Origin: an uncultured delta proteobacterium | GTDB lineage: Bacteria; Desulfobacterota; Desulfobacteria; Desulfobacterales; Desulfosalsimonadaceae | NCBI GenBank assembly: GCA_963826785.1 | Contig: CAWGYD010000004.1 | Location: forward strand, 128,001 to 192,000 | DNA length: 64,000 nucleotides | Direction of reading: 5' to 3' | Part shown: in pieces, positions 15,258 to 39,617 of the stretch | Layout of the letters: each line of letters opens with the position of its first letter | Position numbering within the stretch: the stretch's first letter is position 1 | The notes under the pieces: generated by a model | Told to the model about the DNA's origin: nothing | Seen by the model: only the letters and a program-made list of their open reading frames with translations | The model's database searches: none | Translations under genes and position numbers: made by a program

Positions 15258-18200
15258 GTTTCAATCCTTGTTCTTATGGATAGTTCCCGTCAATGCTATA
15301 CGGCGCTTCATCCTGGCGCCGGTAAGCTAGGGTTTCAATCCTTGTTCTTATGGATAGTTCCCGTCAATGATCGGCTATGCCGCCGTGTATATCGGTCGAA
15401 AATAGTTTCAATCCTTGTTCTTATGGATAGTTCCCGTCAATTGGCGCGACCTGCGGCCGCGGTCGATCTGCGGCTACAGTTTCAATCCTTGTTCTTATGG
15501 ATAGTTCCCGTCAATCCACTAGAGCCGACGGCCACCCGGACCGCCTGGTGTCGTTTCAATCCTTGTTCTTATGGATAGTTCCCGTCAATATGGCCAACTT
15601 CATCATCAAGCGGCGACTGGATGTGGTTTCAATCCTTGTTCTTATGGATAGTTCCCGTCAATAACCGGGCCGTCGATTTAATCGAACGAATACCTGCTGT
15701 TTCAATCCTTGTTCTTATGGATAGTTCCCGTCAATAAGTGCCCTGGAAGATCATGTGGTGGAATCCAATTGAGGTTTCAATCCTTGTTCTTATGGATAGT
15801 TCCCGTCAATAAGGATGCGATTTCTGACGGCCCACTCGGTGCCGTTCAATCTGTTCTTATGGATAGTTCCCCCCCCGATGGGTTTCAATCCTTGTTCTTA
15901 TGGATAGTTCCCGTCAATCTGCCTGCGGCTCGGGCTGCCGCGAGCTCTGATTTCAATCCTTGTTCTTATGGATAGTTCCCGTCAATGGCCGTGGAGCTGT
16001 TCGAACGCGATGTTTCAATCCTTGTTCTTATGGATAGTTCCCGTCAATGATCGGCTATGCTGCCGTGTACATGGTCGAAAATAGTTTCAATCCTTGTTCT
16101 TATGGATAGTTCCCGTCAATATGGCTCCACCTCCGGCCGGGTCATCTGCCGCTCCAGTTTCAATCCTTGTTCTTATGGATAGTTCCCGTCAATCGGATCG
16201 GCGGCCGCCCAGGAATGGCTGTTCTTTCAGTTTCAATCCTTGTTCTTATGGATAGTTCCCGTCAATGTCTTCCCGCTGCAGGTTTTCGATGGTCATCAGA
16301 TGTTTCAATCCTTGTTCTTATGGATAGTTCCCGTCAATAATACGCGGTCGAATACGCGGCCCCGAACCTGGCGTTTCAATCCTTGTTCTTATGGATAGTT
16401 CCCGTCAATATAAAATCTGGGCGGACATTTTTACCAGTTCGTCAGAGTTTCAATCCTTGTTCTTATGGATAGTTCCCGTCAATCCGGGAGTCACCCGTAC
16501 TGCAGATATTGACTGTTCCCGTTTCAATCCTTGTTCTTATGGATAGTTCCCGTCAATATGTCCAGAGTCCCAAAAGGGGCACTATCTGGATTGGGTTTCA
16601 ATCCTTGTTCTTATGGATAGTTCCCGTCAATCCGATCTGATGGCGGCTTACGGTGAACTGGTCATGGCGTTTCAATCCTTGTTCTTATGGATAGTTCCCG
16701 TCAATACGGCATGAACGCATCATACCATTATGCTGATGACAGTTTCAATCCTTGTTCTTATGGATAGTTCCCGTCAATTTTAATGCGCCTTTGGTTTTGA
16801 GTGCGCTTAAAAATGGTTTCAATCCTTGTTCTTATGGATAGTTCCCGTCAATTGTGGCAACCGGCTTGTGGCAGGCGTGGCAATTTATGTTTCAATCCTT
16901 GTTCTTATGGATAGTTCCCGTCAATTCGCATTGTCAAGCTGTGGGACAATCTCAGTACAGTTTCAATCCTTGTTCTTATGGATAGTTCCCGTCAATTTTT
17001 AACTTACTGATTATTGTTGTGTATTCAAAGGTTTCAATCCTTGTTCTTATGGATAGTTCCCGTCAATTGAATTTAACCGCTACATCGGCCCGCACCCGAT
17101 CCGGTTTCAATCCTTGTTCTTATGGATAGTTCCCGTCAATCTGGATGCCGGGGTGCTCTATTTCTTTTGTAAAATGTTTCAATCCTTGTTCTTATGGATA
17201 GTTCCCGTCAATGTGGCTCTGTGGCGATCTGACGCGGCCTTAAATTGGTTTCAATCCTTGTTCTTATGGATAGTTCCCGTCAATATGACACCCGCGGCAT
17301 CCTGCGTGCCGTCCACTGCGTGTTTCAATCCTTGTTCTTATGGATAGTTCCCGTCAATTTGCCGGTGGTTTGGCGCAGGCTGACGGTGGTGGAGTTTCAA
17401 TCCTTGTTCTTATGGATAGTTCCCGTCAATACCGTGGAGCCGGTAGGGGTCATTGGTGAGTGCCGGTTTCAATCCTTGTTCTTATGGATAGTTCCCGTCA
17501 ATCCGGTTTCAACCACAAGGAGGCGATATGCCAATTGATGTTTCAATCCTTGTTCTTATGGATAGTTCCCGTCAATTTCAATCCACTACTCGCTGTTTTC
17601 GCCACCGTTTGGTTTCAATCCTTGTTCTTATGGATAGTTCCCGTCAATGCGTGATGTTTCCGAACGATCCACCTGTTTTTCAATTGTTTCAATCCTTGTT
17701 CTTATGGATAGTTCCCGTCAATTCGAAGGTCTTCGTCTCCACAGGGCCGTACCCGGAGTTTCAATCCTTGTTCTTATGGATAGTTCCCGTCAATAAAAAC
17801 TCCAGATCGTGTGCATATTCCGCGATTGGTGTTTCAATCCTTGTTCTTATGGATAGTTCCCGTCAATACGGATTACGTTTACATTGACGAGTTGCAGAAA
17901 TGTTTCAATCCTTGTTCTTATGGATAGTTCCCGTCAATACCGATTTACCAGTATCAGCCGCATCCAGAACAACAGTTTCAATCCTTGTTCTTATGGATAG
18001 TTCCCGTCAATCCCATGTCCCGCCCATGCTCTCCCAAAACACCCCGGGTTTCAATCCTTGTTCTTATGGATAGTTCCCGTCAATGGTATATTCAATACCG
18101 CCAGCGGGGGCCACCACGCGTTTCAATCCTTGTTCTTATGGATAGTTCCCGTCAATCGGCCTCAACATCAAAATCGACGTCACCAAACTGGACAAGTTTC

Positions 18201-21200
18201 AATCCTTGTTCTTATGGATAGTTCCCGTCAATAAGTGCGACCAGGGCAGACTAAGGCAGATCGTAAGTTTCAATCCTTGTTCTTATGGATAGTTCCCGTC
18301 AATGCCGGTTTTGGGCCGACTGAAAAGCCGGTGCATGTGTTTCAATCCTTGTTCTTATGGATAGTTCCCGTCAATATCCAAAGGTGGTTCATCTCTGCCT
18401 CGCAGCCAGGTTTCAATCCTTGTTCTTATGGATAGTTCCCGTCAATATGGCGGCGAAAAAAGAGATAGCGATTCCTGACCAGTTTCAATCCTTGTTCTTA
18501 TGGATAGTTCCCGTCAATGACATGAGGCTTAAGTCATACACCCAATCCCCCGGTTGTTTCAATCCTTGTTCTTATGGATAGTTCCCGTCAATGATTGATG
18601 ACACCAAGGATGCGGACAGCGATACACCAGTTTCAATCCTTGTTCTTATGGATAGTTCCCGTCAATATTATGGCGGAGTGGTAAAATGTCGAATGAATTA
18701 CTGTTTCAATCCTTGTTCTTATGGATAGTTCCCGTCAATCAAGACACAGATTGATTCTGAGTTTGGGCTGAGGAGTTTCAATCCTTGTTCTTATGGATAG
18801 TTCCCGTCAATAATAGTCCAGGCATTGCGGGAACACGGATTATCCAAGTTTCAATCCTTGTTCTTATGGATAGTTCCCGTCAATGACCGGCTTTGGGTGC
18901 GGGAAACCCATGCGGATATGTTTCAATCCTTGTTCTTATGGATAGTTCCCGTCAATCTCGAACAAAGGAGCCCATTCGAGTCCATTAGTTTCAATCCTTG
19001 TTCTTATGGATAGTTCCCGTCAATCGGGCGGGCGCATACCGCTCACGTGCACGCGAGTTTCAATCCTTGTTCTTATGGATAGTTCCCGTCAATGAATTCT
19101 GCCGAGCATTCATGGCTAGTAAAAGTCGGGTTTCAATCCTTGTTCTTATGGATAGTTCCCGTCAATTCGTATTGGCACGTGCACAACCTTCTCAGTGTCA
19201 GTTTCAATCCTTGTTCTTATGGATAGTTCCCGTCAATTCATATGGCCGGTACTAGAATAGCGGCAATTTTAGTTTCAATCCTTGTTCTTATGGATAGTTC
19301 CCGTCAATTAGTGTAGAATTCCGTTCAGCTCCGGTGTTCAGTGTGGTTTCAATCCTTGTTCTTATGGATAGTTCCCGTCAATACGGACAGGTAAGGCCTG
19401 GGAGATCTGGACGACATTTATTGTTTCAATCCTTGTTCTTATGGATAGTTCCCGTCAATATGTCGGTGTTGGCGTAGTCATCGATATCTGGTTTCAATCC
19501 TTGTTCTTATGGATAGTTCCCGTCAATCCAATGTGGGCTATGTATAATGCGGCACCGTTGTTTCAATCCTTGTTCTTATGGATAGTTCCCGTCAATCGCC
19601 CAGGCACATTGATCACCAAGTCGAATACCGTGTTTCAATCCTTGTTCTTATGGATAGTTCCCGTCAATACTTAAGCACCGTCGCAGATGACGGCCTGTAT
19701 CATTGTTTCAATCCTTGTTCTTATGGATAGTTCCCGTCAATCAGGATTTCGGTTTCAATCCTTGTTCTTATGGATAGTTCCCGTCAATCACATTCCACCG
19801 TCTATGAAGCCGAACATTGTGTTTCAATCCTTGTTCTTATGGATAGTTCCCGTCAATGATACCGATTGCGATCTGAGGCGCAATGGGTTTCAATCCTTGT
19901 TCTTATGGATAGTTCCCGTCAATGCGGTTTCAGGACCACCAGCTCTGTTTCAATCCTTGTTCTTATGGATAGTTCCCGTCAATATGCGATGAACGATTGC
20001 CACGTGTTGCCACTCAACAGGTTTCAATCCTTGTTCTTATGGATAGTTCCCGTCAATCACAGACCGTGGAAGTGGCGGCGATCGCAAATCTACTGTTTCA
20101 ATCCTTGTTCTTATGGATAGTTCCCGTCAATAAACTGTCGGGCAACTAAGAATCCGGTATTGGAGTTTCAATCCTTGTTCTTATGGATAGTTCCCGTCAA
20201 TATAGTCACGCGTATGACCCATCACGGTAGTGCGCGACGTTTCAATCCTTGTTCTTATGGATAGTTCCCGTCAATTGGCGCGGTCCGTGAAATTCTATGT
20301 CGCGGCGTACATGAGTTTCAATCCTTGTTCTTATGGATAGTTCCCGTCAATATAATGTTTCAGGATAGTGTTTCAGCTCGATTGTGGTTTCAATCCTTGT
20401 TCTTATGGATAGTTCCCGTCAATCAACCGACTACCTGATATCAGCGGCCGCGTATAAGTTTCAATCCTTGTTCTTATGGATAGTTCCCGTCAATCATGGG
20501 CTTCATGCCGAGATGCCCGCATTGCAGTGACCGTGTTTCAATCCTTGTTCTTATGGATAGTTCCCGTCAATTGACGGAGGCGCCGAATCATTGCGCATAA
20601 TATGATGTTTCAATCCTTGTTCTTATGGATAGTTCCCGTCAATTAAGTTGCCATCTTAGTCTCGTTATCCGAATCAAGTTTCAATCCTTGTTCTTATGGA
20701 TAGTTCCCGTCAATCCAATGTCGCCAGCTCGATCGCACTTGGTTTCAATCCTTGTTCTTATGGATAGTTCCCGTCAATCCTTACCCTGTTTCGAGCAAGC
20801 TCCGTTTCCTGGTTTCAATCCTTGTTCTTATGGATAGTTCCCGTCAATGCCATCGATCGGAGATACCAGTCGGCACTACATCAATGTTTCAATCCTTGTT
20901 CTTATGGATAGTTCCCGTCAATAGCTGGCATCTGGGCTCGCAAATGGATCAACTTCATGGTTTCAATCCTTGTTCTTATGGATAGTTCCCGTCAATGATC
21001 ATCGGACATGGTCGACATGTGACTGGACATCGGGTTTCAATCCTTGTTCTTATGGATAGTTCCCGTCAATTGAATCTGACAGCCGCATCAACAGATCCGC
21101 ATCAACGGTTTCAATCCTTGTTCTTATGGATAGTTCCCGTCAATCGGGCTCGGCATGACTCCAGAGCTATGTCGCTACCATGTTTCAATCCTTGTTCTTA

Positions 21201-21651
21201 TGGATAGTTCCCGTCAATCTGAGAATCACGATGCGACGACTGCTGGAGGCATTCGGTTTCAATCCTTGTTCTTATGGATAGTTCCCGTCAATCCGTAATT
21301 CTGTGCCCATATGCCGTTCATTGGTGTTTCAATCCTTGTTCTTATGGATAGTTCCCGTCAATTCGATCGCGTCTGCCGGATGACATCAGCAGGTCAGTTT
21401 CAATCCTTGTTCTTATGGATAGTTCCCGTCAATCGGTGCGTCGGCAATTCACGGCGTCACCAGCACCGTGTTTCAATCCTTGTTCTTATGGATAGTTCCC
21501 GTCAATTTGATTGCATCGGCATGCAGAACTGTTATGCCATTCGGTTTCAATCCTTGTTCTTATGGATAGTTCCCGTCAATTAGTGAGACTGCCCAGTCAA
21601 TTGACCTCTTATATGTTTCAATCCTTGTTCTTATGGATAGTTCCCGTCAAT
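15258..21651 (-). CRISPR. CRISPR array, about 90 repeats and 89 spacers; repeat ATTGACGGGAACTATCCATAAGAACAAGGATTGAAAC (37 nt)
   Basis: Near-identical repeats, spacers mostly 34-37 nt; ATTGAAAC 3' end and an AT-rich leader at the high-coordinate end set the orientation. Confidence 0.99.
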
Positions 21652-21858: not shown

Positions 21859-22464
21859 TCAAATGGATTTTTCACACAGATTACCATAGCAGCAGTCCGC
21901 GCATCTTGCCTTGTACTTGGTCGGCGCCGGATAAATACCTTTTTGTACAACATCCAGCAACTGCCCGATCATTGTTTTAAGCTCATCAAAAATCCTTTCC
22001 GGAATCGGCACTTCCACCAATTTGTTGTTGCTGCGGGTGTAGACGATAAAACCCCGTTTCACAGCTATGCTGAAATTATCCTTGATCAATTGAGCATAGA
22101 AGGCAAGCTGAAACCGGTGATTTTTGAAGGTGCGCTCCTTGTATTCGGCATATTTATAATCGAGCGGGGCCGCGGTGCCGTCATCCAGAAAAAGGATTTC
22201 ATCGATGATCCCGCGGATGCCCATTCCGGAAGCAAGATGGACTGATTTTTCCCGCCGGATGCACCCAATCTTCTTCCTCAGGTAATCCGGGTTGAACCTT
22301 GCTTTGTCTTCGTGAACTGTCCGGCCCTTTGTCACCTTGAAGCGCTTTTCCTGGTGCTCGGGAATTTTCAGGTACAGCTCGAAATATGTAAAGCGCGGGC
22401 AGTAGAGGAACTCCAGCAGGTCGGTTGCGGTAACGCTTATTGCCGTGCTTTGATATTGCTCCAT
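21859..22464 (-). CDS. cas4: CRISPR-associated exonuclease Cas4
   Basis: YCPR, GIIDEI, PLDYK, QLAFYA, CADCCYGNLC Fe-S motif; alternative start 22488. Confidence 0.95.
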   Translation of the reverse strand: MEQYQSTAISVTATDLLEFLYCPRFTYFELYLKIPEHQEKRFKVTKGRTVHEDKARFNPDYLRKKIGCIRREKSVHLASGMGIRGIIDEILFLDDGTAAPLDYKYAEYKERTFKNHRFQLAFYAQLIKDNFSIAVKRGFIVYTRSNNKLVEVPIPERIFDELKTMIGQLLDVVQKGIYPAPTKYKARCADCCYGNLCEKSI

Positions 22465-22678
22465 ATCCAAATCGGTATCATTATCCATTTTAAAAGATGG
22501 AAGATGCAGTGCTGCTTTCCGCCGGACTACCATTTTCCAGAAGCCCAAGCTGCTCCGAGTATTCGGATGGCCCAGTTCGTAATCGAAAAAGCCGTCCCCC
22601 GGTACGTGCTCATGCTGCTCGAATTCGTACTCCAGCAGGAATTGATGTCATACCGAATTAACCGAGCAATAAAATGTA

Positions 22679-23203
22679 TCATCCATATCGCTTAATTTGC
22701 TCCTTTACTGTAAACCCGATCCCCTTTTTCGCTTTGTTTTCCGGATTCAACAACTGATCGAGCACCTGAAAAACCACCTGGAACCGCTCATCCGTTTGTT
22801 TCCGAAGTCCCTCTATTTCCTTCTTTAATTCCTCACTGACTGAAACCAGATGGCGAATGCGGGTAAAGGTTCGCATGATCTCTATATTGACCCGAATGGC
22901 TCGATCATTGTTGAGAACGCTGGAAAGCATGGCGACGCCCTGTTCTGTAAAGGCAAACGGTTTGTATCTTGCACCTCCCCAACTTGAGGTCACAATTTGT
23001 GACCTCAAGTTGGTAAATTCTTCTTTACTCATTTCAAACATGAAATCAGGGGGGAATCGATCAATATTGCGCCGGACCGCCTGTTTTAGGACCTTTGTCT
23101 CGACTCCGTACAATTCGGCAAGATCTCTGTCTAACATCACCCTAAGGCCACGTATGTGATAAATTTTTGATGCAACCGCGTCCGATGAAATCATATTCGG
23201 CAT
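22679..23203 (-). CDS. ORF6N domain putative DNA-binding protein
   Basis: IRGLRVMLDRDLAELYGVETKVLKQAVRRNIDRFPPDFMF, PFAFTEQGVAMLSSVL, C-terminal IGF; GGGAGG RBS before ATG 23203. Confidence 0.92.
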   Translation of the reverse strand: MPNMISSDAVASKIYHIRGLRVMLDRDLAELYGVETKVLKQAVRRNIDRFPPDFMFEMSKEEFTNLRSQIVTSSWGGARYKPFAFTEQGVAMLSSVLNNDRAIRVNIEIMRTFTRIRHLVSVSEELKKEIEGLRKQTDERFQVVFQVLDQLLNPENKAKKGIGFTVKEQIKRYG

Positions 23204-23226
23204 CTCAAACCTCCCAGCATGCTGGA

Positions 23227-23503
23227 TTAAATAAAAAACTTTGCCAGAATCTCTTCGTTTACCAGTTTCTTGTCGAATCCCTGGCCCAAGACCTTGATGC
23301 GCCGGAAATCCTCTTGGCAGAAGGGGAAGAGGTAGACGCTCGAAGACAAATTCAGATCTCCTTGATCTCCAGCCAATCGGGCCGCTTTTAACCGTATTCG
23401 GCCAGAAGTATATTGGCCAGCCGGTGGGCTTCGTGCTGGATGATGTGCCGGCGCTTGATGTTTTTCCGGCGGTACGCATCGATTCGTCGAAGTGTGCGTT
23501 CAT
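23227..23503 (-). pseudogene. Fused remnant of cas1 3' end and internally deleted cas2
   Basis: 23341-23503 aligns to 31190-31353 (1-nt deletion, in-frame TAA); 23233-23340 aligns to 30902-31009 with 7 substitutions. Confidence 0.92.
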
Positions 23504-24204
23504 GGGTTACTTGTAACTTCAGGTTTCTCGAATGGTTTAATCCATCCGAAGCCATGACTTACTGCATGGCCAATTGCAAATTCATCGGGAAGGATTGCAT
23601 TTGTGGCGAATCTGCCCAGGACGCCGGTCAGTTGTTGTCCTTTATAATTGCAAGTGACAGTCCTTCTTTCCGTAAAAGTGGCATATAGTCTTTCAGGAAA
23701 AATGATATTCAGTCCTTTCAAAGAAGTGAGGATCTGCGCCCGAAGCAGTCTGTCTTCCTCGTATAGCTTGTCCGTAAACTTCATCGGCTTATACTTGGCG
23801 TAATTTTTCTGATTGAACAAAAGAACAGGGGTCGCCAGGCGATAATGTAAAAGCCTTTCCGAAATGCCGAACTCGGCGGATGCGGGCTTCAGGAATATAT
23901 CTGTGGGGCGAACCTCATTGCCGTTTATCGAGATGTTCAGATCAAGCCAGGGGAGTTGAAGGATTTTTTGTGCCGATTCCATCCAGCCGAGAACGAGCCC
24001 GTTGTTATTCCGCCATTGATACTGAACCCTGGGGTATCGATAGATGAAAGCGCCGCTTGGATCATGCTGATGAAATTCGTTATCCGGAAAGGCATTGAGT
24101 ATTCCACCCCGGAGTTGGGCGGCAAGGGTCTGCCTGAATCCTTTAATCGAACTGTCAAAAACAAGTTCCACTACCGTTTTAGGGCGCTTTTCTAAAATGT
24201 GCAT
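23500..24204 (-). CDS. cas6: CRISPR-associated endoribonuclease Cas6 (Cas6b-like)
   Basis: FHQH...YRYPRVQYQ N-terminus; C-terminal G-loop IGHAVSHGFG. Confidence 0.85.
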   Translation of the reverse strand: MHILEKRPKTVVELVFDSSIKGFRQTLAAQLRGGILNAFPDNEFHQHDPSGAFIYRYPRVQYQWRNNNGLVLGWMESAQKILQLPWLDLNISINGNEVRPTDIFLKPASAEFGISERLLHYRLATPVLLFNQKNYAKYKPMKFTDKLYEEDRLLRAQILTSLKGLNIIFPERLYATFTERRTVTCNYKGQQLTGVLGRFATNAILPDEFAIGHAVSHGFGWIKPFEKPEVTSNP

Positions 24205-26558
24205 GTGGATTCCTTTTCCGGGAGTTTCAAAAATCCGGTTTCTTTTGAGTAATACTCTTCAGAATCAAGAAGTATGACGGGATCGCGTTCCGGATCTTTC
24301 CCGGCATAAACCTGGATAACTCTTTCATAGAACTTGTGCCGGATTTTTCGGAATTGCTTTTTCTTTTCAAGAGCGTCGAGATCACTGTTGCATATCTCCC
24401 GGTATTGTTCCCAGATAGCCTGGTCTGCCGGATTCCGATTTACAAAGCAGGTTACCTGGGGCGGGCCTTCCTCGATAAGTTGGAATTGTTTTTCAAGCTC
24501 GGGAAAATTTCCTTCCAGCCAGTATGTTTCAAGATTGACCTGGTCGATGCGCCCCCAGCAGTTTTCAAAATAAATCCGGCTGAGCCGAAGAAAATCTTTT
24601 TCCTCAAATTCCAGGGTCGTACCGGAGGATATTTCTGAAAGGCCAAGGGCATCGATGGTAGCGTCAATAAGCGGCACATCGTAGATTTTGGACCATAATG
24701 GCGCCTTCAATTCACCGTTTTCATCTTCCTTGTACAGTTTCCAGATGTGCACTTCGCCGGGCGTGCCGCCGTCATGACGATTGGATCGACCGCAGCTCTG
24801 GATGATCGAATCAAGGGGCGCGATTTCCCGATGAACTACAGGAAAGCTGAAATCGACGCCGGCCTCGACCAGTTGGGTGGAAACCACTATGCAGGGAATG
24901 TTGCGTTTCAGATATTTTTGAACAAGTCGGATCCGGGCGCGGCGGTCCCATGGGGTGAGGTTTGTTGACAGCATGATGATCCGGGAATCCGGGAATGCTT
25001 CTTTCAATTTGTCAAATATGTTCTTCACCGATGCCCGGCGATTGAGAATAATCAGGGTGGAACTGAATTCTTCTTTCAAATCCGCAATAATCCGGCCACA
25101 AAATGTGGGAAGACTCAGTTTTTCGGTATGGCAGAAAAGCGACACCCGGGAGAGTTTATGGAAATAGCCCGGATGTTTGGTGAGCAATTCTTTTATATCG
25201 GGATCATCATGTCTGAAAATCAACGGCCGCGTGGCTGTCAGCAAAACGAATGTCATATTCAGGGCAGCCGCGGCCTCACCAAAAATATGGCGGATGGTTT
25301 TCCAGTAACGAAGCGGAACGGCCTGGACTTCGTCCATCAGTACGATGCTGCCGCATAATTGTCCCGCTCGCTTGAGTTCCGAGTTGCTTGCGGAAATCAG
25401 GCTGTGAAGGAACTGGTAAAAGGTCGTGATCACAATTTCACTCTGCCAGCTTTCCGTCAGGAGCGCGCCGGCTTCCTCCGCATCGAATTCGGCTACTTTT
25501 CCCCGGTAAAGTCCCGGCACCAGATGATGATGTTTCAACAGTACGTCTTCACGGTTTCCCAATCCGCAAAGCCTCATGACATCCGCCATGACCTTGTGAT
25601 TCTGGTCGATTACCGAGGTGAACGGGAGACAATAAATGATTCGTGGCGGTCTCTTCCGGTTTTTTGAAATGTTTTTCCGGGCATTCAAAGCGGCGTTGAA
25701 TATAGCCAGGGTCTTGCCCGAACCCGTAGGGGCGGTGAGCGTAAAAAGCCGGTGCTCCGGATTTGTCGCCCATTGATCATTCACTTCACCGGAAATGGCT
25801 TCCCGCAGATGGTCCATATTAGAATCCGGCTGCCCGAATTTCTCCGCTTTGTATCTTCCTACCATATCAGCCGGAATTTCGGGCCGGTTCAGGACATAGC
25901 CGATGGCTGAATCGATTTTATCCGCAGACAGAAGGGCGCCGTATCCCACCAGAAAGCCAAGGACGCCCGGCGTCTTCATTTCCGGAAAACAGCGGCGGAT
26001 CTGTGACATCCGGATCTTGCCGAAACTCTCTTGAATGGCCGCGACTGTGAAGTCCTGGTGGTTTAATACCGGCAGGTCTTTGCTATGAAAATAACGGGAA
26101 AGGCCCGGGGCGACCCATGCGAGTATATTTTCAATATCAAGACTTTGGAGTTGCAGGGGCAGGGTATCGTCGGATTTAATACGCTGGCGGATATTGCCGT
26201 AGGCATTTTCCCAGGAGTCGAATCCCAAGTTTCCATGATGCCGCAAAACGGCAATAAGGATGCTCAGCCTTTTCCACAGGGGCAGATCCAGATATTCGGT
26301 AATCTTCCACCCGATACAGGCGCTGCATTCGGAATGGCTTGTAAACCGGTTCCTTTTTTTCTTCTGAAGCCGGTCAACCTGGAAATAAGGAGTGGATTTG
26401 CCGATATCGTGGAACAGGCCGGATAAAAATGCGATCTGCCTTAAGTCTTCGCCGGCTTCGAAAGCTGCGGCTTCCGCCGATTCGGCGACCCGGAGAAGAT
26501 GCCCGGAAAGCGGATCATTTTCGTGCGCCAGACATTCATAGAAAGGAAACAATTTCAT
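24192..26558 (-). CDS. cas3: Cas3 HD nuclease-helicase
   Basis: HDIGK, HHG, APTGSGKT, DEVQ, TAT, STQLVEAGVD, QSCGRSNR. Confidence 0.97.
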   Translation of the reverse strand: MKLFPFYECLAHENDPLSGHLLRVAESAEAAAFEAGEDLRQIAFLSGLFHDIGKSTPYFQVDRLQKKKRNRFTSHSECSACIGWKITEYLDLPLWKRLSILIAVLRHHGNLGFDSWENAYGNIRQRIKSDDTLPLQLQSLDIENILAWVAPGLSRYFHSKDLPVLNHQDFTVAAIQESFGKIRMSQIRRCFPEMKTPGVLGFLVGYGALLSADKIDSAIGYVLNRPEIPADMVGRYKAEKFGQPDSNMDHLREAISGEVNDQWATNPEHRLFTLTAPTGSGKTLAIFNAALNARKNISKNRKRPPRIIYCLPFTSVIDQNHKVMADVMRLCGLGNREDVLLKHHHLVPGLYRGKVAEFDAEEAGALLTESWQSEIVITTFYQFLHSLISASNSELKRAGQLCGSIVLMDEVQAVPLRYWKTIRHIFGEAAAALNMTFVLLTATRPLIFRHDDPDIKELLTKHPGYFHKLSRVSLFCHTEKLSLPTFCGRIIADLKEEFSSTLIILNRRASVKNIFDKLKEAFPDSRIIMLSTNLTPWDRRARIRLVQKYLKRNIPCIVVSTQLVEAGVDFSFPVVHREIAPLDSIIQSCGRSNRHDGGTPGEVHIWKLYKEDENGELKAPLWSKIYDVPLIDATIDALGLSEISSGTTLEFEEKDFLRLSRIYFENCWGRIDQVNLETYWLEGNFPELEKQFQLIEEGPPQVTCFVNRNPADQAIWEQYREICNSDLDALEKKKQFRKIRHKFYERVIQVYAGKDPERDPVILLDSEEYYSKETGFLKLPEKESTCTF

Positions 26559-27255
26559 CGTCTACCCGGTAAATTTCTGATCCTTTCGAAATTTGACATT
26601 CAATCGGGCCGGCATCCTCGGCCAGGAGGATCTCCTGGTAACGGTGGACAATACGATCGCCGTCCATCACCGCCGGAATCCGGGTCCGGTGATACCGCCG
26701 GTCGGCTTCATATACGGGAGTAACCCCTTCTCTCAGGGAGATCACCGAATCCGTTTTTGCCGTACCCTCGGGCATTATGTGCGCGGCCGCTTCGCCAACC
26801 CAGTTGATATCCGCCAGGCATTGGGCAAGGCCAAGTACCGGTGTGTAAACAGATCGTTGGTCCTCAAGTAGATTCTTCAGCGGGTCATGCATATCGGCCG
26901 GCAATCCGCCGATAAATACCCGGAACGCCGGCTCTTTTAAAAATTCGTAATTGACCTGAATATGGGTATTGGTATGGGCGCGCGGCCGCAGATATTTGTC
27001 GGTGCCGTCCTTGGTGTTGAGAAGATTGATCGCCGCACGGAAGATCCGCACGGGGGCAAGCAGCCGAATGCCGATTTTGATTTTTTCCCAACACAGTTTT
27101 TCATGATATTCCGTTTTCGACAAGCCCAGGACAGCGCCCAGAATTCCCAGCACAGCCGGCGGCGGCGGAAGCGGGAATGTCACCGGGCTCATGGGTGAAT
27201 ATGGTTTTTTGAAATGTCCATATTCTCCGTGGATATCAAAAACCAGGATTTTCAT
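26536..27255 (-). CDS. cas5: Type I-B Cas5
   Basis: VFDIHGEYGHFKKPY...PPPPAVLGILGAVLG; YTPVLG. Confidence 0.93.
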   Translation of the reverse strand: MKILVFDIHGEYGHFKKPYSPMSPVTFPLPPPPAVLGILGAVLGLSKTEYHEKLCWEKIKIGIRLLAPVRIFRAAINLLNTKDGTDKYLRPRAHTNTHIQVNYEFLKEPAFRVFIGGLPADMHDPLKNLLEDQRSVYTPVLGLAQCLADINWVGEAAAHIMPEGTAKTDSVISLREGVTPVYEADRRYHRTRIPAVMDGDRIVHRYQEILLAEDAGPIECQISKGSEIYRVDDEIVSFL

Positions 27256-27258
27256 TAT

Positions 27259-28245
27259 TTATATCTCCAGGTTTTCAGCGGCGATATCCCTTGCCTTGAG
27301 CAGGTCGATTGCGGCCGCCTCCCGTTGTACGTCCTTGAGGCGGAGCCTTGAATTCTGGCGGACCCGGACGGAAACCACTTTGTCGTTTTGTTTGAAGGCA
27401 TCGAGCAACTGCGATAGATCAATGCAGAATTGATTCGAATCCCGGATACTTGTTTCTTCTTCAGGCTGATCCGTCATCTTGATCCTGCGATGTAGTGCAC
27501 CGATTTTGTACCCCTTCCGGTTTTCAATCACCATCAGCAGCATGGGATCATGCCCCATTTTCGAATGGGTGTTGAGCTCGGCGGTGCCGCGCCAAAGGGC
27601 ATCCAGCATCTGATTCAGATCTTCTTCGGACATTCCGGTAGTGCGGGCGGCGTTTTCGTTGGCAACCCCATAGACGCCGATAAGGGCGTAGGGGAGAAGC
27701 CACCGTTCGGCAAACGATTTCTGCGATGCCGAAGCCGAGCCGGCGAAAGCGGCGGTCTGCTGCACCATTTGCGGCGAAACGCGATGCAGGCTGCGGTTAA
27801 ACGGCATAAACTGGACCGGACCCGTCACTTTCAGGGAAGCCTCATTTTTGCCCATGGGAAGGGCACACCCGAACAGACGGGCATCAATGCATTTTTTCAT
27901 GATGATGTCCTGAAGTGCATTCAACTTTTCAAGCCCTTTTTTCCCTTTTACGGCTTCATCAATGAAGCTTTCCGCCCGGTCCTTTCCCTGGGATAAAAAA
28001 CCGTCCGGCTTGAAAGTATCTCGGATCAGAATCTCTGTGCCATTGGCGATCCTTTTTTCCACGTCCGGTTCGCTCGCCAGGAAAAAGTCCCGGACCGTCC
28101 GCTTGATCCGGACATCGGTCACCGTCGCTTCGCCGGTTTCCGGGTCCGTGCGGGGCCGGTTTTCATCAAGAGGATCACCATTGGGATTACAGTCCTTGGC
28201 CTCATAAAGAAACAGCATTTCATAACGATTTTCAATTGGACCCAT
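27259..28245 (-). CDS. cas7: Type I-B Cas7 (Csh2-like)
   Basis: NPNGDPLDENRPR, TDVRIKRTVRD, DARLFG, TGPVQF; GGAGG RBS before ATG 28245. Confidence 0.95.
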   Translation of the reverse strand: MGPIENRYEMLFLYEAKDCNPNGDPLDENRPRTDPETGEATVTDVRIKRTVRDFFLASEPDVEKRIANGTEILIRDTFKPDGFLSQGKDRAESFIDEAVKGKKGLEKLNALQDIIMKKCIDARLFGCALPMGKNEASLKVTGPVQFMPFNRSLHRVSPQMVQQTAAFAGSASASQKSFAERWLLPYALIGVYGVANENAARTTGMSEEDLNQMLDALWRGTAELNTHSKMGHDPMLLMVIENRKGYKIGALHRRIKMTDQPEEETSIRDSNQFCIDLSQLLDAFKQNDKVVSVRVRQNSRLRLKDVQREAAAIDLLKARDIAAENLEI

Positions 28246-28687
28246 TGTCTTCCGCCTCCTCGACATATTCAGAGATTTCTGCCAGTTCCTTGTTGCCGGA
28301 AAGCGCCCTGATCCTGCCTTCCAGGCTGTAGCCGATCGTGAATGCAAAAGTGGCTTCTTCGTTCGTGATTTTCCAGGTTTCCCCGCACCTTACCCATGCC
28401 TGGGCCAGGTCCGGATCCATGGTTTTCGCAACCAGACCCAGGGCCTCATACTGCGCCAGTTTGTCATGACCTTCCCGGTAGAGCCGTTTCAGATGATCCC
28501 GCGGCAGAAGCCGCCCTACAAACTTCTTGGCAAACGGCGTGGTTTTTCGCTTTCCATATTGAACGCTGGTGACAACAGACATGTAGCATCCTGTCAGAAA
28601 AGCAACGACTTTTTCCGGCTGGTCAAAAAATTCCGGGTGCTCAAGGATATACTGCCCATAGGGGCTTGCAGGGACTGCACCTTCCAT
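28232..28687 (-). CDS. cas11: Internally translated small subunit Cas11 (151 aa), in frame within cas8b
   Basis: AAAAGGAG 5 nt upstream of an in-frame ATG preceding the helical FF...KVVAFLTG domain. Confidence 0.7.
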   Translation of the reverse strand: MEGAVPASPYGQYILEHPEFFDQPEKVVAFLTGCYMSVVTSVQYGKRKTTPFAKKFVGRLLPRDHLKRLYREGHDKLAQYEALGLVAKTMDPDLAQAWVRCGETWKITNEEATFAFTIGYSLEGRIRALSGNKELAEISEYVEEAEDNGSN

Positions 28688-30034
28688 GGGAACTCCTTTT
28701 CTGTTCGGGATTATGAGTTGCGTAAGGCATGCATAGCGGTAAAAAGCCCATGCCTGGCGCAGTGTCCAATTGAGCATGGAACTTTCTTTTTTGCCGACGG
28801 AGATGATTCGGTTGACCAGGTGATGCAGAAATTGGTTGTACCTGATCTGTTTATGTTCAAACAGGGCGACAAGCCATGCGCGGAAAACTTCTTCGCTCTT
28901 GCTTTCGGATGCTTCCGAAAAATTGTGGATCAGCCTGGCATTGATTTCGATCGGCTTTTCCGCCCCATTTTTATCGATAGAGGTCAGGTCATCCGCCGAC
29001 TTGATTTTCCTGCCGGCATTATAAATGGCTTTCATCCGGCTGGGCAGGACCTGCTGAACTTCCGCCTGAATTCGCCAGGCGGCATTTTCCTGTTTGAAAA
29101 AAATCAGGGCAAAAGCCATTTGATCGGAATGGCCGGTAAAATCTTCTAAAAAGTTCTCTTCCTGTGCGATCAGGTCAAACTGCTTGCTGTTTCCCAGCTT
29201 GAACCGCCCCGGGTTGGTGGTCAGCAGGTGTTTCATCTCTTCCCGGACTTCTTCGGAATTACTGTAGGGGAGGATCATATAGCTCTGGCCGGCCATGGTG
29301 CCGGTCAGATCATCCCCAATGCGGATCACCGCGCCTGAAATTTTTATGGCGCATTCCTCGCATACCGGGAAGTTTTTAACTCCGTCCACCTCTTTGAATC
29401 CCCCGGCAATGCTACCGATCTTATCGAGATTGTAGCAGGCCAGGAGTGAATAATTGCCGAAAACAAGTTTGTCTTTTCGACCGCAGACAAAACATGTGCC
29501 TTGCGCCCTGATGCCGCCTCGCGTTTTCCAATTGGCCAGAACCGATTGCTGCATGTGGCGTTTGCAGGATTCCCATTTATAAACCGGCAGGACATTGCCA
29601 TTTGAATTCTTCGCCCAGAACACATACCCGCGATGTTCTTTTCCATCAATTCCAGAGTCTTTGGATTGTGCCTCGACTTCAGCCCAGATGGATTTCAGGT
29701 TTTGGGAATAATCGATGACGGTGACATCCAGCCATTTTTTTTCCTCGGGAGTCAGTTCGCCGGATTCCAGGAGATTTTTCACAGCTTTCAGGAGCCGGTT
29801 GTCGGTGGTTTTCGCCTGCTTGCAGCAGGGGGTATAATCGGTCCCGTTCGAAGGGCCTGAACGATAAATTACATCTTCCCTTTTATGCAGAACCTTGACG
29901 GAATCGAATCGTCCGGTTTCATCAAAGCAGATGGCAAGCCCCCGATCATAAATTTCCGGCATTCCTTCGTTCAGGTATTCGATCAATTCCGAATCCGGCA
30001 GGAGTTTACTGTACTCGGAAAGTTTCTGGAACAT
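28232..30034 (-). CDS. cas8b: Type I-B large subunit Cas8b (TM1802/Csh1-like)
   Basis: CFVCG...YNLDKIGSIAGGF...NFPVCEEC zinc motif; position before cas7. Confidence 0.88.
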   Translation of the reverse strand: MFQKLSEYSKLLPDSELIEYLNEGMPEIYDRGLAICFDETGRFDSVKVLHKREDVIYRSGPSNGTDYTPCCKQAKTTDNRLLKAVKNLLESGELTPEEKKWLDVTVIDYSQNLKSIWAEVEAQSKDSGIDGKEHRGYVFWAKNSNGNVLPVYKWESCKRHMQQSVLANWKTRGGIRAQGTCFVCGRKDKLVFGNYSLLACYNLDKIGSIAGGFKEVDGVKNFPVCEECAIKISGAVIRIGDDLTGTMAGQSYMILPYSNSEEVREEMKHLLTTNPGRFKLGNSKQFDLIAQEENFLEDFTGHSDQMAFALIFFKQENAAWRIQAEVQQVLPSRMKAIYNAGRKIKSADDLTSIDKNGAEKPIEINARLIHNFSEASESKSEEVFRAWLVALFEHKQIRYNQFLHHLVNRIISVGKKESSMLNWTLRQAWAFYRYACLTQLIIPNRKGVPMEGAVPASPYGQYILEHPEFFDQPEKVVAFLTGCYMSVVTSVQYGKRKTTPFAKKFVGRLLPRDHLKRLYREGHDKLAQYEALGLVAKTMDPDLAQAWVRCGETWKITNEEATFAFTIGYSLEGRIRALSGNKELAEISEYVEEAEDNGSN

Positions 30035-30056
30035 GTGGTTTTCCTTTATTGTTCCC

Positions 30057-30467
30057 TTACAGATTGATTATCTGGGCATTTAATTTATCAAAATCCCGGT
30101 CAAAAGAAACAACCGGATGGGTGGGAGAAGAACAGGCATACAAAAGGCAATCCACGAAATCGATGCCATGCTTTTCGTACGCCAGCAGGGCGTTGATCAA
30201 TATAGCCTTGTTTGAATTGACAATGCCGTTGAAGCTGATGACCCGATTCAGCCGGTCCACGATTTCCCCGCGTGGAATCTTATAAAAACTTTCCATGACG
30301 TAAATGCATTCCAGCAGGACAGCATCAAGGATCTTGGCTTTTTTTCTGGAATGCGAAACTTCGATCATGAACCGGGTGGCTCTGGGACTGAATTCAGGAT
30401 GATCATCCAGTAGATAGCGGAGAATGACATTGGTATCGATCAAATGGATTGTTTCGTGAGAATTCAC
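30057..30467 (-). CDS. vapC: PIN-domain VapC-family toxin
   Basis: IDTNVILRYL, E in VLLECIYV, DFVDCL, SFDRDF. Confidence 0.9.
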   Translation of the reverse strand: MNSHETIHLIDTNVILRYLLDDHPEFSPRATRFMIEVSHSRKKAKILDAVLLECIYVMESFYKIPRGEIVDRLNRVISFNGIVNSNKAILINALLAYEKHGIDFVDCLLYACSSPTHPVVSFDRDFDKLNAQIINL

Positions 30468-30485
30468 TCGAAGATGCCTGCTTGT

Positions 30486-30752
30486 CTATGATTTTCGCTC
30501 ATGTTCATTATTAATTTCCCAGGCAATCTCCTCCTGGATTTTCCCCCTGATCTTATCCAGCGGCTCGTATTTTTTGGCGTAGGCCTTCAGACTGCCGGCC
30601 AAGCTTTCCGCTGTTCCGGCGGGCACGCCCTTGAGTTTAACTTCCCCGTTTTCCACCACAAACAATACCGAGCCGTCTTTACTGATATTCAGCTGCTTCC
30701 GGATTTGCTTAGGGATGGTCACCTGTCCTTTTTTAGAGACCTTTGCGTACAT
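30486..30752 (-). CDS. AbrB/MazE/SpoVT-family antitoxin
   Basis: AKVSKKGQVTIPKQIRKQLNI swapped-hairpin signature; directly upstream of the PIN gene. Confidence 0.92.
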   Translation of the reverse strand: MYAKVSKKGQVTIPKQIRKQLNISKDGSVLFVVENGEVKLKGVPAGTAESLAGSLKAYAKKYEPLDKIRGKIQEEIAWEINNEHERKS

Positions 30753-30809
30753 TTGGTTTTGTCCATATTATAGTGAATATCCTTTATTTTTATTTTTTTC
30801 TTTACAATT

Positions 30810-30840
30810 ACAATATTTCATTCATTTTGGAATTTGTCAA
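30810..30840 (-). promoter_or_regulatory. Putative sigma70 promoter of the abrB-vapC-cas8b operon
   Basis: Minus-strand TTGACA at 30840-30835 followed after 17-19 nt by an AT-rich -10-like AATATTGT. Confidence 0.55.
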
Positions 30841-30861
30841 ACCTCATGTATTGCATCAGGC

Positions 30862-30898
30862 AGTAATTGGAGGTCACAAATTGTGACCTCCAATTACT
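30862..30898. promoter_or_regulatory. Perfect 18-bp-arm palindrome, candidate operator or hairpin
   Basis: AGTAATTGGAGGTCACAA-A-TTGTGACCTCCAATTACT abutting the cas2 stop; 21-bp core shared with 22979-23013. Confidence 0.7.
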
Positions 30899-31198
30899 TC
30901 AAAAAAACTTTGCCAGGATCTCCTCGTTCACCAGCTTCTTGTCGAATCCCTGGCCCAGGACCTTGATGCGCCGGAAATCCTCCTGGCAGAAGGGGAAGAG
31001 ATAGACGCTGTCCTCTTCCTCGTCGATGATCTCCCGGCAGATTTCGCCCAGTTCATCGAACCGGCTGCTTTCAAGCCGGCCCAGAAATACGCTCTTCTGG
31101 ACCCGGACGAGGCCGGCCTTCTTGCAGGCCTTGGCCACCTTGTTCCGCTTCTTGTTTTCCACAATATCGTAGATGATCCAGGTCAGAATCGAAGACAC
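30899..31198 (-). CDS. cas2: Cas2
   Basis: IIYDI, RVQKSVFLG, DSVYLFP; GTG start behind AAGGAG. Confidence 0.95.
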   Translation of the reverse strand: MSSILTWIIYDIVENKKRNKVAKACKKAGLVRVQKSVFLGRLESSRFDELGEICREIIDEEEDSVYLFPFCQEDFRRIKVLGQGFDKKLVNEEILAKFF

Positions 31199-31200
31199 AC

Positions 31201-32220
31201 TCAGATCTCCTTGATTTCCAGCCAATCGGGCCGATTTTTGCCGTCTTCGGCCAGAAGTATGTTGGCCAGCCGGTGGGCTTCGTGCTGGATGATGTGACGG
31301 CGCTTGATGTTTTTTTTGCGGTAGCGCACCGACTCATCCAGGTGCGTGTTCATGGCCTCCACCACCACGGGTTTGCCGTTCTGGTTTAAGCTGACCGCCT
31401 GCTCGCCGGCCTCGAAATAATCATCCTTCATCCGGCGGCCGGTGAACAGGTACACGCCGGTCTGCTCGGCAAAGATGCGGAAGGGTTCGATCAGGTCGAA
31501 CACCAAAGACTTCTTGTTGTAGTTGTCCGTGTGCAGAAAGCCCACATAGGGGTCGAGGCCGGAGAGGATGCAGGCTTTTTCCACCAGGCTGTAGAGGATG
31601 CCATAGCAATAGTTGAGCACCGCGTTGAAAGGGTCTTTGGCCGGCTGGCGGGAGCGGCCGGAGAAGCGGTATTTTTCCGGCAGCAGCTGTGAAATGCACT
31701 GAAAGTAGGCCCGGCCGGCGGCCCCCTCGATTCCCATCAGCCGGTTGCGGATGTTCTCTTCCGTGTCTGCCGTAAGCTCCGCCAGATTTTCAAGCGCCTT
31801 GGCGATTGCGGCCAGCGGCTTTTCAAACTGCGGCTCCTTTCCGGGGCGGGCATACATCAGCTTCTTGAGATACTGGCCCTGGTTGTCGAATTTCTGCCGG
31901 ATCATGTCCGTGACCAGCTTGAGGCCGGTTTCCCCGTGCACCGCCGCGTCGAGCTGCCGTCGCCGGATCAGGGCCGTGCTGCCGGTTTTGGAAAACCAGA
32001 CCCGGCCCACCGGATCGCCATACCCGTCCAAAAAGACGATGTCGATGTTGTGCTCCAGCGCCAGGACCACCGCCTGGGTGGAGAGCATGGCCTTGTTGGT
32101 GAGGATGATGGACTCGACCTTCAAGGGGGATATGTCGAACCGCTTCTCCTCATGCTTGAGGCGGAATATCCCGTCTTTCTGGGTGATCAGGGTGCCGGGG
32201 GTGTTGATGACCAACTGCAT
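31201..32220 (-). CDS. cas1: Cas1
   Basis: LMGIEGAAGRAYF, DPFNAVLNYCYG, GLDPYVGFLH, LVFDLIEPFR. Confidence 0.98.
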   Translation of the reverse strand: MQLVINTPGTLITQKDGIFRLKHEEKRFDISPLKVESIILTNKAMLSTQAVVLALEHNIDIVFLDGYGDPVGRVWFSKTGSTALIRRRQLDAAVHGETGLKLVTDMIRQKFDNQGQYLKKLMYARPGKEPQFEKPLAAIAKALENLAELTADTEENIRNRLMGIEGAAGRAYFQCISQLLPEKYRFSGRSRQPAKDPFNAVLNYCYGILYSLVEKACILSGLDPYVGFLHTDNYNKKSLVFDLIEPFRIFAEQTGVYLFTGRRMKDDYFEAGEQAVSLNQNGKPVVVEAMNTHLDESVRYRKKNIKRRHIIQHEAHRLANILLAEDGKNRPDWLEIKEI

Positions 32221-39150: not shown

Positions 39151-39228
39151 TGGATGCCCGCCTTCGCGGGCATGACAATAATTATATCATTGGCCATTAC
39201 CCGTCATGCCCGCGGAGGCGGGCATCTA
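39151..39228. repeat. Inverted doublet of 26-bp palindrome GTCATGCCCGCGRAGGCGGGCATCYA (REPIN-like)
   Basis: Copies at 39151-39176 (minus) and 39203-39228 (plus), 26 bp apart; truncated third copy at 39558-39577. Confidence 0.88.
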
Positions 39229-39237
39229 TGATTACAT

Positions 39238-39537
39238 TCATTGCCTGATAACTCCGTACAAATCTTTCCATTCAGGATTCTTTTCCTCGATCAGCCGCAT
39301 TTTCCAGTCACGATTCCACTTCTTGATCCTTTTTTCCCGGGTGATTGCCGACTCTGCATTCTGGTGAACCTCATAATAAACCAGATTCACCACATTATAC
39401 TTTTCCGTAAACCCCTTCACGAAATGTTGTTTGTGCTGCCAGACGCGCTTGAGCAGATCAGAGGTAACCCCGACGTACAAAGTGCCATTTTTTCTGCTGG
39501 CTAAAATGTAAACGTAGAACTGTTTTTCATATTCCAT
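39238..39537 (-). CDS. Small stand-alone GIY-YIG nuclease
   Basis: FYVYILAS...TLYVGVTSDLLKRVWQH, AITREKRIKKWNRDWK. Confidence 0.93.
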   Translation of the reverse strand: MEYEKQFYVYILASRKNGTLYVGVTSDLLKRVWQHKQHFVKGFTEKYNVVNLVYYEVHQNAESAITREKRIKKWNRDWKMRLIEEKNPEWKDLYGVIRQ

Positions 39538-39617
39538 TCTAAACCGCCACCCCACCCATCATGCAGGCGGGCATCCAGATAATCCGCCATCATTCAATTG
39601 GCGGCATCAATTCGCAA

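Follow-up and report, generated by a model that had tools for sequence, protein, structure and literature searches.

Probable merger of two type I-B CRISPR-Cas systems at one locus of an uncultured delta proteobacterium, with direct cas1/cas2 repeats read as its scar

Exchange of effector modules in situ, next to fixed cas1, cas2 and cas4 genes, has been described for CRISPR-Cas systems (Koonin and Makarova 2019, PMC6452270), and module replacement in the E. coli type I-E system is ascribed to insertion sequence (IS) elements (PMC3903273). The vapBC pairs inside the cas cassettes of Sulfolobales are proposed as an aid to maintenance (PMC4390879 section 8, PMC3119797), and unconventional circularizable structures are described as having long direct repeats of at least 99% identity, their circles having been demonstrated by PCR (PMC7843796). 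The locus studied here lies in a 64-kb stretch of contig CAWGYD010000004.1 (the window), part of the 4.43-Mb, 11-contig genome of an uncultured delta proteobacterium, and coordinates are positions in the window unless another contig or locus is named. It carries a type I-B effector and an abrB-vapC toxin-antitoxin (TA) pair between two copies of cas1/cas2 sequence, and a preliminary description had taken these for a potentially excisable interference cassette protected by the toxin. We instead read the locus, with a probability of about 0.72, as the result of merging two type I-B systems built on the same frame, cas1-cas2-(variable effector)-cas4-array; in this reading the repeats are the scar and the TA pair is a passenger.

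The second cas1-cas2 allele and the remains of another effector

Assignment with NCBIfam and Pfam gave, on the minus strand, the order cas1-cas2-abrB-vapC-cas8b-cas7-cas5-cas3-cas6-(repeat)-ORF6N-cas4-leader-array (Table 1), which bears out the gene order of the preliminary description and its placing of the TA pair and effector between same-orientation cas1/cas2 copies. The effector is type I-B of the Hmar variant, as TIGR02590 and TIGR02592 matched above cut-off and cas1, cas2, cas4 and an array accompany it; matches to TIGR02556 and TIGR02591 were below their cut-offs. The repeats consist of a cas1 block (23505-23340 against 31355-31189; 147/167 identical, 88%, one 1-nt gap, E 7e-53, offset about 7849 bp) and a cas2 block (23340-23233 against 31009-30902; 101/108 identical, 93.5%, E 3e-39, offset about 7669 bp). 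This similarity is far beyond chance, and neither block has another such copy in the genome. The measurements agree with the earlier figures (108 bp with 7 mismatches, about 160 bp of the cas1 end, about 7.7 kb apart), but that account overlooked that the two blocks form a single segment, comprising the cas1 3' end, the first cas2 codons, an in-frame 180-bp deletion (codons 4-63) and cas2 codons 64-99, and also overlooked the cas1 frameshift and stop and the effector shreds at 22641-22490. An open frame of 40 codons is left in the cas2 remnant. All seven differences in the cas2 block are synonymous, where 21% synonymous is expected per random change (p ~2e-5 if neutral), so the downstream copy is a different allele, which acquired these changes while it still worked and decayed later. 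The cas1 block shows conservative replacements besides its frameshift and stop.

The second line of evidence comes from the 190 bp gap between ORF6N and cas4. When compared by tblastx with loci of the collection described below (L numbers), it matched the cas5 ends of L060 and L062, both of which carry Tneap-type I-B effectors (Cas8b1/Cst1, Cst2, Cas5t). The 25-codon shred is identical to P0029 at 18 of 25 positions, is the best six-frame genome match for 29 of 52 Cas5t queries, and, of 116,378 six-frame segments, was alone in matching a hidden Markov model (HMM) of the Cas5t C-terminus with an E below 2.7. By sequence it is thus assigned to the Tneap type, another I-B variant than the intact Hmar effector. 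The adjoining segment is co-linear with L062, its stop falling one base before the cas4 start, and is suggestive of a Tneap-type Cas3 end; an earlier reading of this segment as a cas6 start fused to cas4 was dropped, since a Cas3 end followed by a normal cas4 start describes it better. Searches of the window's genome turned up no whole Tneap cas5, and the segment 22489-22680 had no match in plasmids. A Cas5 shred with no whole source in the genome cannot stem from a duplication of the Hmar locus or from mis-assembly of that locus. In L062, another C-terminal shred resembling Cas3 (L062:10702-10850) separates cas3 from the second of the two cas6 genes and suggests a scar of the same kind.

Downstream of cas6 the gene order is therefore cas1 3' end, cas2 5' and 3' ends, intact ORF6N, Tneap cas5 3' end, probably Tneap cas3 3' end, and cas4. 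Together the shreds and the cas1/cas2 remnant indicate that this region is a collapsed second locus of the form cas1-cas2-ORF6N-(Tneap effector)-cas4-array. Large foreign DNA can be captured by one anchor, through homology-facilitated illegitimate recombination. Here, the conserved cas1-cas2 genes would have served as the anchor for recombination at one end, and a non-homologous join or a single crossover would have completed it at the other, setting the Hmar effector with abrB-vapC beside the Tneap locus. Successive deletions would then have eroded the Tneap effector and the superfluous cas1-cas2 copy, with ORF6N and a single cas4 retained. The direct repeats are in that case probably the product of an effector swap.

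Table 1. Features of the locus, in gene order, with positions in the window.
Feature	Position	Strand	Remarks
cas1, intact, 339 aa	31201..32220	-	TIGR00287, PF01867
cas2, intact, 99 aa from GTG	30899..31198	-	TIGR01573, PF09827
35-bp perfect palindrome just after cas2, copy of the ORF6N palindrome	30863..30897	.	
Sigma70-like promoter upstream of abrB, predicted	30812..30840	-	10/12, extended -10
abrB/MazE-type antitoxin, 88 aa	30486..30752	-	TIGR01439, PF04014
vapC PIN-domain toxin, 136 aa	30057..30467	-	PF01850
Hmar-type I-B effector cas8b-cas7-cas5-cas3-cas6, whole	23500..30034	-	
cas8b	30034-28232	-	Cas8b PF09484, 205 bits
cas7 (Csh2-type)	28245-27259	-	
cas5 (Cas5h)	27255-26536	-	
cas3	26558-24192	-	
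cas6	24204-23500	-	stop overlaps cas1 remnant
cas1 3' remnant	23352..23505	-	88% identical to upstream copy; frameshift and nonsense codon
cas2 remnant	23227..23349	-	first 3 codons fused in frame to codons 64-99
ORF6N, intact	22679..23203	-	PF10543; PADLOC PDC-S05 match (candidate)
In-frame palindrome within ORF6N	22979-23013		
C-terminal shred of Tneap-type Cas5, 25 codons	22567..22641	-	tblastx E 6e-5; C-terminal HMM E 3.3e-5
Probable Tneap-type Cas3 C-terminal shred, 24 codons and stop	22490..22564	-	abuts cas4 start
cas4, intact	21859..22488	-	TIGR00372
Leader	21858-21652	-	
CRISPR array with 89 repeats (37 bp each; 88 are identical)	15258..21651	-	

Related loci and the direction of the exchange

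The collection of cas1 orthologues drew on 58 genomes of the family, 401 of the order and 401 of the phylum, as well as on metagenomes, and 54 loci with a cas1 identity of at least 58% were mapped after duplicates and more distant cas1 loci had been dropped; some metagenome contigs are perhaps redundant, and kin are not independent. Fifteen loci were complete, running from cas1 through the effector to cas4. All 15 follow the plan cas1-cas2-(effector)-cas4-array, the effectors themselves being of several kinds, and in none of the 15 do cas1/cas2 repeats surround the effector. The cas1 sisters L062/L065 (support 98/90) carry different modules, as do the sisters L057/L060/L022/L068 (support 100/99), so the earlier proposal of swappable effector modules inside a fixed frame was well founded: as in described in situ exchange, the adaptation genes and array are fixed while the effector differs among relatives. 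L009 and L010 have the same effector as the window (71-84% identity) in the same order, with no distal repeat and with cas6 directly before cas4.

A footprint comprising a full gene, cargo and the decayed end of the same gene was found in four of the 15 complete loci (L050, L057, L060, L068) and in L066. It involves cas2 in L050 and L068, cas6 in L050, L057, L060 and L066, and cas4 in L057 and L068, and the cargo includes ORF6N, HEPN-MNT, BrxC-like and other genes; the same footprint occurs with host genes around ORF6N in L085 and L088. Other self-repeats in relatives, namely a tRNA end in L051 and intergenic elements in L055 and L062, were set aside as unrelated. Two loci carry two cas6 genes (L060:4676-6999 and L062:3984-11548), which either flank the Tneap module or stand ahead of it; this is consistent with stacked module arrivals. 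Among the cargo genes, a BrxC-like gene of 388-408 aa (helical and winged helix-turn-helix domains) stands between cas4 and the leader in L057 and L068, together with a duplicated cas4 end. Four-helix-bundle genes (23S rRNA IVP/bAvd-like; Pfam for L050) were seen between cas1 and cas2 in L018, L028, L050 and L054.

As to direction, an Hmar module arriving over a Tneap resident is modestly favoured. Of eight gene-end duplications in related cas loci, seven are left-anchored, the cargo being followed by a 3' remnant, and this favours an incoming Hmar module. The opposite course shares the scar and the passenger TA with the merger as set out above and differs in direction only, its share of the probability being contained in the figure already given; it is possible, but is the less likely order of events. 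Here an Hmar locus like those of L008-L010 would have been the resident, and a cas1'-cas2'-ORF6N-Tneap-cas4 fragment, perhaps already collapsed, would have entered via cas4 and joined at the cas6 end, so that ORF6N was gained. Such a course would suit the base composition, as the cas2 remnant has a higher AT content than the upstream cas2, which is host-like (third-position GC content, GC3, of 0.72 against 0.83, with 6 of 7 changes towards A/T; the GC3 of the upstream cas1 is likewise host-like at 0.83), and the collapsed cas2'-ORF6N loci known in the family (G035, G054). The final 11 residues of cas6 are unlike those of L009 and L010, the cas4 of the window is closest to that of the Tneap locus L060 (72%), and a right-anchored case is known in the cas4 5' remnant of L057. 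Against it stand the prevailing left-anchored pattern and the cas4 tree, in which the approximately unbiased (AU) test between the systems (p=0.40) supports placement with neither. Sliding identity and a comparison of leaders likewise place neither cas4 nor the leader with one system, the comparison of ancestral states at the seven cas2 sites had a mixed outcome, and the GC3 contrast between cas1-cas2 and effector occurs in relatives too and so gives no direction.

Several points weigh against an incoming Hmar module over a Tneap resident, or against the merger itself. The AU result applies to this direction also, and the GC-richer upstream cas2 fits the opposite one equally well. The C-terminal Cas5t HMM was picked after the tblastx match, so its E of 3.3e-5 is optimistic, and a full-length Cas5t HMM (120 proteins) gave no match at the shred in the six-frame genome. 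The Cas3 shred outscores shuffles (p<=0.005) for three of five Tneap Cas3 ends and not for the other two. A search of 58 family genomes turned up no Tneap module. The comparison set is without a congeneric genome, and the parents and junctions were not seen directly; the closest locus, L008, has an intact TA pair, but its sequence ends inside cas3, with the distal side beyond it.

Excision, the toxin-antitoxin pair and ORF6N

AbrB and VapC form a textbook pair. In the window the antitoxin gene is directly upstream of the PIN gene, as in the type II VapBC layout, and the acidic catalytic residues D11/E53/D106/D123 are all present in the alignment; from its sequence, VapC may be active. A scan of the region for sigma70-like sites found 3 against 2.1 expected. 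A TTGACA box is found at a similar position in L008, L009 and L019. The promoter-like site before abrB and the 22-nt gap between vapC and cas8b indicate that the pair probably heads the effector transcript, and the predicted promoter probably drives abrB-vapC-cas8b to cas6 as one operon. A further, distant abrB-vapC pair lies at C5:316910-317528.

An abrB match follows cas2 in 15 of the 43 loci with a whole cas2, and the next effector gene in these is this cas8b in three and an unrelated cas6 in six, while the contig ends in the other six. Of the 15 complete loci, one (L060) has an intact pair, three (L009, L010, L057) have a broken one, and 11 gave no match. One of these 11, L050, has other TA-like pairs, and the remaining 10 gave no TA-like Pfam match in the 35 of 68 candidate ORFs scanned, those that had been identified before, came from the array or were very short having been set aside. 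As abrB follows cas2 whatever effector comes next, and is often lost, the pair goes with the cas2 end rather than with this effector, and is dispensable. The claim that the pair is a dedicated guard of the interference cassette is therefore not supported: it travels with cas2, and both complete relatives with the same effector, L009 and L010, keep the cas order with vapC truncated or absent, an outcome that the preliminary description itself had named as counting against its proposal. Nor was a link to Cascade found. In six intergenic regions the best 37-mer match to the CRISPR repeat was 15-18 (6 in the 22-nt gap) against a shuffled mean of 16.6-18.1, a scan which very divergent creA repeats could escape; four spacer seed matches fell in the locus, none of them in the abrB promoter, and an Rfam search gave no match. 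With no creA-like repeat or promoter-matching spacer, the pair is not coupled to Cascade as in CreTA and does not sense it. It is a conventional type II pair, a common passenger after cas2 that is often lost, and may slightly penalise deletions that include it.

No recombinase or integrase was found among the 13 locus proteins and 43 of the 55 other window ORFs; the 12 left out are overlapping alternative frames or were covered by an earlier protein scan. The repeats, being decayed coding sequence, do not resemble the short att core of a site-specific integrative element. It is improbable that the segment is a recombinase-free cassette that arrived as a circle by a single crossover, leaves likewise and is held by VapC addiction. 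The geometry does fit single-crossover integration, and a simulated crossover in the cas2 block deleted 7,669 bp and restored cas1-cas2-ORF6N-cas4-array with a 339-aa Cas1 and a 100-aa Cas2. The catalytic residues of VapC are intact, cross-neutralisation is unlikely as the closest AbrB and VapC paralogues in the genome are only 37% and 27% identical, and vapBC maintenance of cas cassettes has been proposed for Sulfolobales (PMC4390879, PMC3119797). The repeats, however, are short and diverged, with longest identical runs of 35 bp in the cas1 block and 24 bp in the cas2 block, where a minimal RecA segment of 25-35 bp is given for B. subtilis (PMC6382021). The better substrate, in the cas1 block, yields a broken product (a 327-aa Cas1 and a deleted cas2), which argues against design. 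Furthermore, the bracket is absent from all 15 complete relatives, vapC is lost in both with the same effector, and 10 of the 15 have neither abrB/vapC nor another TA-like Pfam match in the span.

The preliminary description had foreseen that recombination between the cas2 copies would leave a clean adaptation-only locus without TA and effector. This holds for a simulated cas2-block crossover and not for one in the cas1 block, and the product would be clean in having intact cas1 and cas2 but would retain the Cas5 and Cas3 shreds. That the repeats are kept as an excision device is not supported, the relatives being unbracketed and the downstream copy a decaying allele of another locus. At most, deletion is possible at a low rate by ordinary RecA, as for any such scar, and nothing suggests that deletion to an adaptation-only locus is selected. 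Similarly doubtful is a broader scheme for this clade, in which cas1-cas2 and the cas6/cas4 ends are standing anchors for recombination. Small defence genes and whole effector modules would travel through them as circles that need no recombinase, and the gene-end repeat left by every arrival would make it reversible. The abrB-vapC pair, with its promoter driving the effector operon, would tip the contest between co-resident effectors, which would explain why the Hmar module with its TA lasted here while the Tneap module, having none, was shredded.

A local tandem duplication with neutral decay, or an assembly artefact, is very unlikely. The two copies are nearer each other (88-93.5%) than to any relative (62-84%), as a duplication would have them, and the junctions are known from the assembly alone; on the other hand, the cas2 divergence is entirely synonymous, the Tneap shreds have no source in the genome, and the 465-kb contig is without N.

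Remnants of cas2 start near codons 62-65 in four genomes (the window at 23340, L068, L054 and L081), possibly reflecting a deletion hot spot or, in part, an alignment effect; that of G054 starts at codon 31-36. The C-terminal tail of Cas2 has a role in Cas1 binding. The least probable explanation is that the window's remnant is a retained mini-gene. Its 40-residue Cas2 C-terminal peptide, translated from a ribosome-binding site of its own, would compete for Cas1 and thereby dampen the acquisition of spacers. The in-frame deletion, open frame, synonymous differences and shared start would suit it, but the L054 and L081 remnants are frameshifted or stopped, that of L068 has many replacements, that of G054 begins elsewhere, and some 2-3 lesions in the adjoining 167 bp make zero replacements in 108 bp non-significant (estimated p ~0.3). 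The frameshift in the cas1 remnant also opens a 274-codon frame (22679-23503, minus strand), with an ATG overlapping the cas6 stop and running into ORF6N, which may preserve translational coupling to ORF6N and cas4 but may equally be incidental.

The in-frame palindrome of ORF6N reached the threshold in 20 of 25 genes scored (L081-L110) against 1% of random windows, and its arms co-vary while the encoded peptide, and even the frame, changes; no description of it was found in the literature. The upstream intergenic copy was present in 2 of 25 by the strict test and is visible too in L012 and L019, and the same element lies between cas2 and ORF6N in L008, L012 and L081. Of six matches to the cas2 clade in the family, five are followed by ORF6N (four intact, one internally deleted) and the sixth, the upstream cas2 of the window, retains only the palindrome that precedes ORF6N elsewhere; this palindrome marks a lost upstream ORF6N. 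In the collapsed CRISPR loci of the family (L012, L014, L122:10716-11570, L123:8314-9225 and window 22490-23505) ORF6N is intact and the cas genes are shredded. G035 and G054 show this as well; all that is left between host genes in G054 is the end of a cas2, ORF6N and one half of a repeat. ORF6N may be a selected or a selfish gene, and if any gene outlasts locus decay in this family it is ORF6N, not VapC.

Elsewhere, the array is uniform except for several irregular spacers, of 10, 23, 25 and 27 nt, and a 71-nt interval that includes part of a repeat; these may be deletions or read errors. The locus lies next to a YiiX-like gene on the chromosome. A REP-like inverted repeat (39153-39226) lies beside a solitary GIY-YIG gene (39241-39555) after hrpA. 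A second, distant cas1 at G000:C5:252354-253671 (L001), a 570-aa frame followed by cas2, probably belongs to a Cas4-Cas1 fusion system.

Comparison with known systems

Like unconventional circularizable structures (PMC7843796), the window has direct repeats and no recombinase of its own, but its repeats (167 and 108 bp at 88-93.5%) are decaying and well short of near-identity. As in CreTA/CreR/CrePA (PMC12737573), a toxin gene lies inside a I-B locus, but no crRNA-like antitoxin or regulator was detected in the window, nor a degenerate mini-array of that kind. A protein antitoxin senses only the loss of its own gene and not that of Cascade function, which makes the pair unlike CreTA. The closer likeness is to the vapBC pairs of Sulfolobales, with an AbrB-type antitoxin and a PIN toxin within the cas operon, although the window is a bacterial I-B system and its relatives often lose the pair and keep the effector.

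Homology-facilitated illegitimate recombination (PMC6382021) offers a matching outcome, as an anchor and a non-homologous join leave a full gene, cargo and a resident 3' remnant; it is not shown in this phylum, and sequence alone cannot tell it from single-crossover integration. Unlike E. coli I-E replacement, which involves IS elements, the window keeps displaced shreds and a second cas1-cas2 allele without an insertion sequence. No description of a sequence scar of effector replacement was found in the literature covered (mainly non-subscription journals, without supplements). The locus agrees best with in situ exchange, in which cas1, cas2, cas4 and the array stay and the effectors change, here between Tneap and Hmar I-B, and it is a well-preserved new example of that known process, not a new excisable, toxin-guarded cassette. 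Effector exchange is usually inferred from discordant trees; the window offers a physical record in both cas2 alleles, the join and the shreds of the displaced variant, and the matching footprint of full gene, cargo and decayed gene end in its relatives makes this locus a useful case for module swaps without a transposase.

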